Positions 28,108-30,310 of a stretch of 64,000 nucleotides of DNA are shown piece by piece. The notes under the pieces are model-generated. The model was not told the DNA's origin. It saw only the letters and a list, made by a program, of their open reading frames with translations, and did not search any database. The stretch lies in the NCBI RefSeq assembly GCF_054482595.1, contig NZ_CM137008.1. The stretch is one strand, 5' to 3'. The position numbers and the translations under genes were made by a program. How positions within the stretch are numbered: the stretch's first letter is position 1; each line of letters opens with the position of its first letter.

Positions 28108-29295
28108 TCAGCTAAATAAATATGTAATAGCATAAGGTGTAAGTAAAAAGTAGAATCTAAATGTAAGATATAAGCCACATAAAACTATAATTCCTAATGA
28201 GGCAAAAACAACTTTCTGAACAAGCAATCTTGTGGTTAAACTATCAAATGTATCCTTTATATCTTCGTAAATAGCCTTGAAGTTATATTCTGCTTGTTGT
28301 TTTTTATGATTTAACTCATCATTTATTGCTGTTAAAGTTTGCCATTGATTAAATAGAACAAATATAATCATAATAGTGAAGAACAATGCACCCAACACTA
28401 CAGCTGTGTTTATTAATGCTTGACTATCCCAACCATTAGCCTGCTTCATTTGAGTCGCAACGATAATTGTTGCGACGGGGATACCTAATATCTGATTTTG
28501 TATGTCACTGAATACTTTATGTATTTTCCCCATCTCTTCTATTTTGGCTACTCGTAACTGATCTAGTATTTTCTCGTAAGAAAAACCAGAAACGAATACT
28601 TTGTATCCTTTTTGATAACTTTCATAAAGTTGTCCTAAATCCCTTAACATGAAGGAAAAAGAGGTTTCTTTAGTTTTAGATTCACATGATGATTTTATAC
28701 TACTTGCTAAAATAGTAAGTTTTTGATCTTTATGCGTATCTTCTGCAAAGTTTGCGATCAAATTATGAATCAGATCTCCATTAACATTCATAAGATCATC
28801 GCTAGAATAATTTACTGGAATTTTTAGTACGTTGGATTCGACGAATACCAATTCAAAATTTGTTTCATCTAAATAAGCAGAACAATCTTTGAATAAAGTA
28901 ATTAAGCTCAAAACATCTCTGTACTTGGATATAATAGCAGGCGACTTTTTATCCCTGTTGTGATAATTAAGTTCGATTATAAAGAAGTTACTGGCTTCCT
29001 TTATCCTATTTTTAGGATTTTTTAAATACTCATTAAAAGAGAAATGTAGCTGCCCCAATCGTAATTTGGGGGGGGTTATATGTAAGGTTATAGTTTGGCC
29101 TAACTCAATGTTGCCAGATTCAAGGGTGATGCCAAAATCATGGGGATTCTCTGTGATATCGTTGATGATGTCACAGAGCTCCTCGTTTGAAAGAATGAGT
29201 GATGCTTCAGATAGGGTACCTGCAAATGTAGCGGCCTTGTAAATAGTCACTAAGTCTTTGAAGGTTCTCTGGTTTTTACTGCTCATCCTCTTCAC
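28108..29295 (-). CDS. Hypothetical 395-aa protein with C-terminal pair of TM helices (downstream partner of the NdpA-like gene)
   Basis: Soluble N-terminal 290 aa then two hydrophobic segments (AVVLGALFFTIMIIFVLF; VVFASLGIIVLCGLYLTFRFYFLL); start overlaps upstream gene by 20 nt; AT-rich. Confidence 0.65.
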   Translation of the reverse strand: MKRMSSKNQRTFKDLVTIYKAATFAGTLSEASLILSNEELCDIINDITENPHDFGITLESGNIELGQTITLHITPPKLRLGQLHFSFNEYLKNPKNRIKEASNFFIIELNYHNRDKKSPAIISKYRDVLSLITLFKDCSAYLDETNFELVFVESNVLKIPVNYSSDDLMNVNGDLIHNLIANFAEDTHKDQKLTILASSIKSSCESKTKETSFSFMLRDLGQLYESYQKGYKVFVSGFSYEKILDQLRVAKIEEMGKIHKVFSDIQNQILGIPVATIIVATQMKQANGWDSQALINTAVVLGALFFTIMIIFVLFNQWQTLTAINDELNHKKQQAEYNFKAIYEDIKDTFDSLTTRLLVQKVVFASLGIIVLCGLYLTFRFYFLLTPYAITYLFS

Positions 29296-30310
29296 CTAAT
29301 TCTGATAAAATCTCTGATCTTAGCGTATCCGGAATCTCGGTAAGTATCAATTTATCGTTTTCTGAATCATAAAGAACGCTGCCATCATGCAAGGCCGCAC
29401 GCTCGAATTTCAGAGACCAATGTTTGGACTTTCCTTTGAAACTAACAAGCCCACGTATAACGTTGCCATCAGGCACGAACCCATCAGAGAACTCCAGATC
29501 GTCATTGGTTAACTTTTCAACTAACAACTCAGGAGCAGTTGGCCATATCTCGTTTGCAAAAATTTGAGTGTCGAAAGTTTCACCAGAACGATTTAAATTT
29601 TTTAATTTTTCATGAGCCTTATTTAGGAACTCTTCACGTGCCTCTGGTTCAAAACCTCTTTCAGTAGCAAATTCTAAAAGTGCATTCCGTAATTTTGTTG
29701 TTTCTTGTTTGGCAATTAGAATATCGTTGCAACCTAAAAACTTTTTGAAATAACCTGCTACTGAATTTTGCCCCTTTAGAAAGCTAATATATCTCTCTTT
29801 GCCATTCTGGCGCCCAGTTAAGTCAATTCGTCCCGCTACTCGAAGTTTAGCAATGTCTAGATATTCACTTTCTTGAATTTCAAAATCGTGGACTGAAGAG
29901 CCAACTGCTGAAGTTAGGATTGCAACCATCAAATAATGATTTCCATTTACCTCATTATGGGCAATTATTACATAACCACCAGTAGACATTGATTCATCAT
30001 CGGCTCTGGCTTTTAAATGATTGATCATTCGGATACTAGTATCATAAAAACTATGTGTTTTATTTACGAAATAATCATCAACGATATTACCCATAGGGTA
30101 ACTATCGCGGTCATCTTCAAATTTCCCATATCCTTTACCTGCTCTCCCAGAGTACCTTTCAGTAAGTGCGTTAGAGAGGTCTTTTGATGCTTGCTGAACA
30201 GGTTTTTCTGAAGGACAAGGAATAATGGTGGCTAACCCCTGTTGTTCCTTGTTCATAATGTGAACAATAAACTTATGAGTGATATTAGTGGGGGTCGCTG
30301 ATGCAGTCAT
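29276..30310 (-). CDS. Nucleoid-associated protein NdpA/YejK-family (NA37) paralogue, prophage-encoded
   Basis: 344 aa; aligns along its length with host YejK in this window: [120 protein letters not shown]. Confidence 0.75.
   Translation of the reverse strand: MTASATPTNITHKFIVHIMNKEQQGLATIIPCPSEKPVQQASKDLSNALTERYSGRAGKGYGKFEDDRDSYPMGNIVDDYFVNKTHSFYDTSIRMINHLKARADDESMSTGGYVIIAHNEVNGNHYLMVAILTSAVGSSVHDFEIQESEYLDIAKLRVAGRIDLTGRQNGKERYISFLKGQNSVAGYFKKFLGCNDILIAKQETTKLRNALLEFATERGFEPEAREEFLNKAHEKLKNLNRSGETFDTQIFANEIWPTAPELLVEKLTNDDLEFSDGFVPDGNVIRGLVSFKGKSKHWSLKFERAALHDGSVLYDSENDKLILTEIPDTLRSEILSELGEEDEQ

Follow-up and report, generated by a model that had tools for sequence, protein, structure and literature searches.

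The 64,000-nucleotide (nt) stretch of contig NZ_CM137008.1 (RefSeq assembly GCF_054482595.1) analyzed here, hereafter the window, contains a lambdoid prophage of Escherichia coli in which two minus-strand genes encode a nucleoid-associated protein (NAP) of the NA37/YejK family and a membrane protein. The window sequence is identical (100%) to the chromosome of E. coli strain 50EVA. This pair is probably anti-phage cargo carried by the prophage, a 'YejK-like sensor plus membrane effector' that would form a divergent subtype of DS-1 (DeWeirdt, Mahoney & Laub, Science 2026, PMC13092281) and that is built like type II PANGU (Li et al., bioRxiv 10.64898/2026.04.06.716658, April 2026). The defense reading is preferred because of the homology to the validated DS-1, the shared genomic slot, the behavior of the two genes as a unit, the defense genes that neighbor their relatives and a high DefensePredictor score. 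The division into sensor and effector is proposed because the operon is tight, the two proteins have diverged together and the N-terminal domain of the membrane partner is variable in comparison with its conserved juxtamembrane and transmembrane (TM) core. A preliminary description of the window had regarded an NA37 protein coupled to a membrane protein as undescribed; this no longer holds, as DS-1 and type II PANGU were described in 2025-2026 and the DS1_1 and DS1_2 models match both proteins. The kind of system is already known and, judging from these matches, the pair would be a divergent addition to it, providing a second, strongly diverged subtype for defenses that use a YejK-like nucleoid protein as infection sensor. 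The main components are:

29276..30310, minus strand: gene 1, NA37/YejK-family nucleoid-associated protein, 344 aa, WP_000127202.1 (open reading frame (ORF), Pfam, NCBIfam)
28108..29286, minus strand: gene 2, membrane partner, 392 aa, WP_052516676.1 (ORF with the RefSeq start)
29276..29286, minus strand: overlap of the gene 1 stop and the gene 2 start, 11 nt, ATGAGCAGTAA (sequence)

DS-1 (working name D390) is one of the 42 systems validated in the DefensePredictor study, which counts 'a YejK nucleoid-associated domain' among the domains newly validated in defense (DeWeirdt et al., 2026). It consists of WP_000355468.1 (DS-1A, 391 aa, zinc ribbon and NA37) followed by WP_000150292.1 (DS-1B, 404 aa, two TM helices), and in E. 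coli it reduced plating by 10^7.6 for Bas1, 10^2.7 for Bas26, 10^1.7 for both Bas3 and T3 and 10 for T5, while small plaques were seen with T7 and SECphi27 in the screen (DeWeirdt et al., 2026). The exact gene 1 protein of the window appears in Table S10 of the same study as 'Predicted novel defense gene' with log-odds of 9.14, and a homologue with 41% identity is included in Table S4 (DeWeirdt et al., 2026). Both proteins of the pair are remote homologues of their DS-1 counterparts: BLASTP matched the gene 1 protein with DS-1A (E-value = 3e-10) and the partner with DS-1B (E-value = 4e-7), and hhalign aligned the partner family with DS-1B at 94% probability over 279 columns, with the same TM layout. 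The two systems share the gene order, that is NA37 followed by a protein of ~400 aa with two C-terminal TM helices and a helical spacer between, and in both the AT-rich cargo lies antisense between Q and holin in a near-identical E. coli prophage backbone. They differ in that identity is only 25–28% over partial alignments, and in that the DS-1 genes are 2 nt apart whereas those of the window overlap by 11 nt. Furthermore, protection by DS-1 was shown experimentally, while a defense role of the window pair is predicted from sequence, and RefSeq calls the DS-1 loci 'anti-phage protein' but names WP_000127202.1 'nucleoid-associated protein' and WP_052516676.1 'hypothetical protein'.

The genomic position provides the second line of evidence. 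Compared by blastn with L024, the DS-1 locus, the window aligns at 96–97% over 25186-28057 and 30361-38309, with no alignment between these blocks. As they occupy the same slot in a 96–97% identical backbone, the pair and DS-1 are therefore alternative cargo at one hotspot, running from the 3' end of Q to a conserved late-promoter/terminator block. The features of this region, together with the host yejK gene, are the following:

27736-28083, plus strand: antiterminator Q, flanking the pair
28058..30360, unstranded: exchangeable cargo segment, the sole non-aligning stretch against the DS-1-bearing prophage backbone L024
28091..28109, unstranded: perfect 8-bp GC-rich hairpin GACGGCCA-TAT-TGGCCGTC, read from the sequence, between the convergent Q and partner genes and overlapping the partner stop codon
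30311..30360, minus strand: cassette-specific 5' leader and probable promoter region, with a TATTAT hexamer ~38 nt upstream of the ATG
30427-30448, plus strand: terminator-like hairpin inside the 240-bp block described below (terminator scan)
30601-30927, plus strand: lambda-family holin, flanking the pair
58054-59061, plus strand: host yejK, 27.7 kb from gene 1

According to the L024 gene map (public assemblies), DS-1 lies antisense between antiterminator Q and holin, and its neighbors are those of the window: DUF968, KilA-N, RusA and PerC to one side, with HNH, small terminase, portal and further genes to the other. A third cargo of the same slot is the PADLOC candidate PDC-M53 A+B, found in E. 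coli H1827/12. The segments compared with window 28058-30360 were L024 7950-10407 and L019 1855-3469, and each of the three cargoes (the pair, DS-1 and PDC-M53) consists of two genes in antisense orientation, with a membrane protein among the products. Regarding abundance, DS-1 was present in 106 of 5426 complete E. coli genomes and the pair in 15. E. coli PM06121 (NZ_CM129866.1) carries both subtypes in different prophages (3359797-3362207 and 3659146-3661746), which suggests that DS-1 and the pair are not redundant. The flanking 240-bp block (30361-30600, plus strand), located 5' of the holin, is common to ~900 complete E. coli genomes, and its core CTAATGCGTACGCAAAAA...GTTAAGAGTGGT...AAACCCGC...GCGGGTTTTGT is kept in a Rahnella prophage; the block probably comprises the Q-dependent late promoter, the qut site and a terminator. 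The region between Q and the lysis genes is a well-known hotspot of morons, such as stx in Stx phages. Two YejK-like subtypes and the unrelated PDC-M53 are thus interchangeable at one hotspot that extends from Q to the late promoter in a prophage family common in E. coli, and the resulting 'allelic series' of DS-1, pair and PDC-M53 on one backbone offers a handle on phage specificity, on the effector step and on dual carriage in one strain. As already noted in the preliminary description, the pair is AT-rich, antisense and placed between Q and holin: the guanine-cytosine (GC) content of the two genes is 0.385 and 0.328 (33–39%), compared with 0.52–0.53 (52–53%) in the prophage flanks, and the flanking annotation agrees.

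Regarding their behavior as a unit, the two genes form a true conserved module. A search with the partner family as the only query and one genome per species led to 11 loci, in Erwinia, Providencia, Pectobacterium, Mixta, Gallionella, Zoogloea, Aeromonas, Sideroxydans, Duganella, Acinetobacter and Cupriavidus. In 10 of them the partner is immediately preceded by an NA37 gene of the same strand; the exception is Cupriavidus, where the partner is truncated. The same NA37-then-partner arrangement was also detected in Klebsiella, Jeongeupia, Pectobacterium and Rahnella loci, in an smpB-adjacent island and in Sinorhizobium phage phi2LM21, so that the co-occurrence in other prophages and islands for which the preliminary description had called is borne out; the host range spans alpha-, beta- and gamma-proteobacteria. 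Pairwise identities of the NA37 proteins correlate with those of their partners (Mantel r = 0.93 for 18 independent loci, with none of 5000 permutations as high). Both genes are under purifying selection, with a proportion of nonsynonymous differences (pN) of 0.09–0.32 against a saturated synonymous one (pS) of 0.77–0.87. The GC content of the pair was lower than that of both flanks in 16 of the 21 compared loci and higher than both in none. That the pair is a chance ORF artefact was ruled out by pN being far below pS and by the 1109 clusters (50% identity, E-value ≤ 1e-3) of the partner superfamily, which are of uniform length, mostly 390–420 aa; roughly 300 family members are close relatives. 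A degraded copy was observed in Xenorhabdus budapestensis (CP072455.1, locus L020, 6211-8017), where the NA37 gene is split into fragments of 247 and 97 aa lying ~770 nt apart, while the partner is intact; located beside phage tail genes and an IS1 element, this copy looks like a decaying one.

The genomic settings of the module combine phage and defense contexts. The antisense slot beside Q also holds the pair in Rahnella, in Erwinia and in Klebsiella phage Kp4865-4. In total, the pair abuts the lysis cassette in nine prophage or phage loci, four of which are lambdoid (antisense, between Q and holin) and five Mu-like; in the Mu-like prophages it shares the orientation of holin and endolysin and immediately precedes them. 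At least three kinds of temperate carriers of the cassette were counted. Elsewhere, the pair adjoins Zorya II in Duganella (L010) and a type I-U CRISPR-Cas locus, at the Cas5/6g gene, in Zoogloea (L007), it is flanked by toxin-antitoxin genes in Gallionella, and in the smpB island it adjoins an integrase.

The gene 1 protein belongs end to end to Pfam NA37 (PF04245, residues 15–330, E-value = 9.4e-69), the family that had been expected for it, and it matches PHROG 3767, 'nucleoid associated protein'. Its sole relative in the PDB is YejK (9BE2, E-value = 1.7e-19). Its best NCBIfam match is also YejK, with 165 bits compared with 56 bits for DS1_1. As proposed in the preliminary description, the 344-aa minus-strand ORF at 29276..30310 does resemble the host YejK encoded ~28 kb away in the same window: identity is 27% over residues 111–334 (tblastn, E-value = 6.5e-21), and the sequence blocks quoted there, including RYLTFLKGR, were found in both proteins. 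Although the full-length NA37 family is shared with the housekeeping YejK/NdpA of E. coli, the gene 1 protein differs from it in being prophage-encoded, AT-rich and always coupled to a membrane partner, besides the low identity. A housekeeping YejK orthologue was ruled out, as the score against the YejK model (NF001557) is 164.8 bits, below the equivalog cut-off of 341, and the true yejK is located elsewhere in the window. By analogy with the related systems, the gene 1 protein is presumed to be a DNA-bound sensor.

Concerning the partner, no Pfam family was found and a profile search against PDB sequences gave no match, but PHROG 5023 was matched with an E-value of 1e-79. Hydropathy shows two strong peaks at residues ~291–313 and 358–382, confirming the earlier remark that the protein ends in two hydrophobic helices. 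The AlphaFold2 (AF2) model, with a mean predicted local distance difference test (pLDDT) of 80, consists of an alpha/beta domain (~1–215), a very long helix (217–277) and a helical hairpin (288–335 and 337–382) within which both TM segments fall. The partner is presumed to be a membrane effector with a cytoplasmic N-terminal domain, a juxtamembrane helix (217–285) and a two-TM hairpin (~288–382). Conservation peaks in the juxtamembrane helix 217–285 (majority-residue fraction 0.78), while no other soluble part varies as much as the N-terminal domain (0.51). From the comparison of subtypes, residues 217–285 together with the TM hairpin emerge as an effector core common to both, and the N-terminal domain as the region that would evolve fast and pair with the sensor. 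A role as holin or other lysis protein, which would have refuted the preliminary description, was considered and rejected: the partner lacks a lysis PHROG or Pfam match, its ~390 aa include a large cytoplasmic domain, and the prophage has its own set of holin, endolysin and Rz beside the pair. The truncated Cupriavidus copy, on a plasmid contig of Cupriavidus sp. U2 (L012, 8001-8588), retains only the C-terminal half (residues ~191–386), that is the juxtamembrane helix and the TM hairpin, with no NA37 gene nearby; this fragment may represent an effector core that acts on its own or is coupled in another way.

At the junction of the two genes, two starts can be considered for the partner, an ATG at 29286 (392 aa, 11-nt overlap) and a GTG at 29295 (395 aa, 20-nt overlap). 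The true start is most probably the ATG at 29286, since it is the RefSeq call, homologues begin at an equivalent MS or MT, and AGGTGA, a Shine-Dalgarno-like motif, is located 6–11 nt upstream of it. The overlap of stop and start reported in the preliminary description therefore stands, while its values of 20 nt and 395 aa become 11 nt and 392 aa. Such a tight junction (an overlap, or a gap of ≤ 3 nt between called genes) was seen again in related loci, and the arrangement suggests translational coupling. Upstream of gene 1, likeness to other prophages of the same backbone begins only at ~30357–30361, and the pair's own promoter is probably located in the cassette-specific leader. At the opposite end, the hairpin at 28091-28109 could function as a bidirectional terminator; it was left unreported by the terminator scan because it is not followed by a run of T. 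At the counterpart of this position in the DS-1 prophage, the Q and partner genes overlap by 21 nt instead.

The second system with which the pair can be compared is PANGU, defined by the combination of a YejK-like NAP with an effector, type II consisting of Pag2A (the NAP) and Pag2B (Li et al., 2026). Pag2B bears an N-terminal sensor-binding (DMK) domain and a C-terminal TM domain (Li et al., 2026). Type II PANGU requires both genes, each of which is non-toxic alone, and confers a phenotype resembling abortive infection in liquid culture at high multiplicity of infection (MOI) (Li et al., 2026). The PANGU sensor leaves the phage-damaged host genome and then engages the membrane effector: Pag2A-GFP quits the nucleoid upon T4 infection and binds the N-terminal domain of Pag2B with a dissociation constant (KD) of 19 nM; T4 was also the phage with which PANGU-Ecu was challenged (Li et al., 2026). 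Type II was delimited among Cluster 2 NAP operons as two-gene operons with neighbors < 40 bp apart and defense genes within 10 kb. The window pair likewise presents a YejK-like NAP in a two-gene operon, with genes that overlap by 11 nt, and an effector with a soluble N-terminal domain (1–215, AF2) and C-terminal TM peaks (291–313 and 358–382). Moreover, both systems are found in E. coli, the family of the pair is linked to defense genes (Zorya II in Duganella, type I-U in Zoogloea), and sister prophages hold DS-1 or PDC-M53 in the slot of the pair.

From these comparisons a mechanism can be proposed. A promoter of the cassette itself would drive both genes in the lysogen, antisense to the late genes and with translational coupling, as the anatomy of the cassette suggests. 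The NA37 protein would reside on the host nucleoid, as expected from its family and from the localization of Pag2A-GFP. Once the host chromosome is broken down or remodeled by a superinfecting lytic phage, the NA37 protein would be released, by analogy with PANGU, and the free protein could then bind the variable N-terminal domain of the partner, in line with the co-divergence of the two proteins and the 19 nM affinity between Pag2A and Pag2B. Finally, the juxtamembrane helix and the two-TM hairpin would shift to a membrane-damaging state and the cell would be halted before phage release, that is, by abortive infection. A DNA-sensing NdpA-like module that triggers a membrane effector in abortive infection had been the first hypothesis of the preliminary description; for the closest relatives, DS-1 and type II PANGU, such a scheme has since been demonstrated or put forward, and it would extend to the window pair by analogy.

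Several observations weigh against assigning the pair to anti-phage defense of this kind. Two NCBIfam equivalogs represent DS-1, NF053868 (DS1_1_antiphage, 'nucleoid-associated anti-phage protein') and NF053869 (DS1_2_antiphage), with cut-offs of 330 and 315 bits, and the window proteins score far below both: 56.2 bits for the gene 1 protein (E-value = 2.8e-15) and 70.3 bits for the partner (E-value = 1.5e-19). DS-1A starts with MDITCLECGNVLDDPTVACDKCG and carries an N-terminal CxxC...CxxC zinc ribbon, whereas the gene 1 protein lacks the ribbon, its N-terminus being MTASATPTNITHKF with no Cys pairs in the 344-aa translation, and it is nearer to the housekeeping YejK (165 bits) than to DS-1A (56 bits). 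As both scores stay below the curated cut-offs and the zinc ribbon is missing, the pair is not filed as DS-1 itself. Compared with type II PANGU, the DMK domain of Pag2B is reported to be a highly acidic 'DNA-mimic' while residues 1–262 of the partner are only mildly acidic (net charge −5, pI 5.8; the family spans +2 to −16), so that such mimicry is not apparent by composition, and the likeness is drawn from the described architecture and mechanism, not from the Pag2A and Pag2B sequences. Neither protein was matched in the PADLOC-DB v2 (2023) scan, which is attributed to the system post-dating that release, and a sigma-70 consensus scan of the minus strand 5' of the pair gave no match. The placement upstream of the lysis genes in the Mu-like prophages would also suit a function of the phage's own.

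Among the alternatives to the sensor-effector defense, superinfection exclusion survives best, although we regard it as unlikely. The membrane protein would then block DNA entry or an early membrane step, with the NA37 protein as regulator or anchor, and infected cells would survive. The inner-membrane nature of the effector, as modeled by AF2 and hydropathy, and the variety of its temperate carriers (at least three kinds) agree with this, and membrane killing has been demonstrated for neither DS-1 nor Pag2B. Nevertheless, the type II PANGU relatives show abortive-infection behavior in liquid culture when the MOI is high, a cytoplasmic, nucleoid-bound sensor suits sensing after DNA entry, and the pair is not confined to prophages but also adjoins Zorya and CRISPR-Cas genes.

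A function for the phage itself appears quite improbable. The NA37 protein would report the state of the host chromosome during lytic growth, for example in Mu-type replicative transposition, and the partner would tune lysis timing or holin triggering, a scenario that the contact with the lysis cassette in nine loci (four lambdoid antisense, five Mu-like co-oriented upstream) would favor. Yet the pair is missing from most prophage relatives, being found in 15 of 5426 genomes against the ~900 that possess the adjacent late-region block, and DS-1 or PDC-M53 stands at the same site instead, in a region that is generally a moron hotspot. The pair also occurs in non-phage islands, its GC content is unlike that of the phage, and the homologous DS-1 confers protection when it is cloned by itself, outside any phage. 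A related proposal is a phage-owned sensor of nucleoid integrity whose membrane protein times or vetoes lysis, its own or a competitor's, as opposed to host-style abortive infection; it is put forward because of the co-carriage with DS-1, the sensor that is closer to YejK and the constant contact with the lysis cassette in lambdoid and Mu-like phages, and we likewise give it little credence. It is highly improbable that the gene 1 protein competes or forms mixed oligomers with the host YejK and so alters DNA topology or gene expression, with the membrane protein as an accessory: yejK is present in the same genome and the gene 1 protein resembles YejK more than DS-1A (165 vs. 56 bits), but identity to the host protein is only 27%, strict co-inheritance and co-divergence with the membrane partner indicate a dedicated two-component device, and the idea of a phage device competing with the host NdpA, raised in the preliminary description, found no support in this analysis.

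Apart from the pair, the window bears other accessory genes. A separate integrase-bearing island lies upstream of the prophage (8271-9247, minus strand, with neighbors to ~16030) and contains genes annotated as 'ABC-three component system'. One of the proteins so annotated, of 252 aa, matches the models of the PADLOC candidate PDC-M68A and of an HNH-type effector, while hypothetical genes of 682, 347 and 419 aa in the same island had no PADLOC or NCBIfam match. At the island/prophage junction, between the integrases at 14795-16030 and 18729-19907, a 583-aa hypothetical protein is encoded (16655-18406, minus strand), for which PADLOC and NCBIfam likewise gave no match. Within the tail module, an antisense gene for a 148-aa 'OB-fold protein' (45010-45456, minus strand) is located between the tape-measure and DNA-circularization genes; it had no PADLOC or NCBIfam match and is a probable further moron. 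Finally, an iss/bor-type serum-survival lipoprotein gene, a classic lambdoid moron, was identified antisense just after Rz (31897-32190, minus strand), and the DS-1-bearing sister prophage has a Bor-family (PF06291) gene at the matching position.

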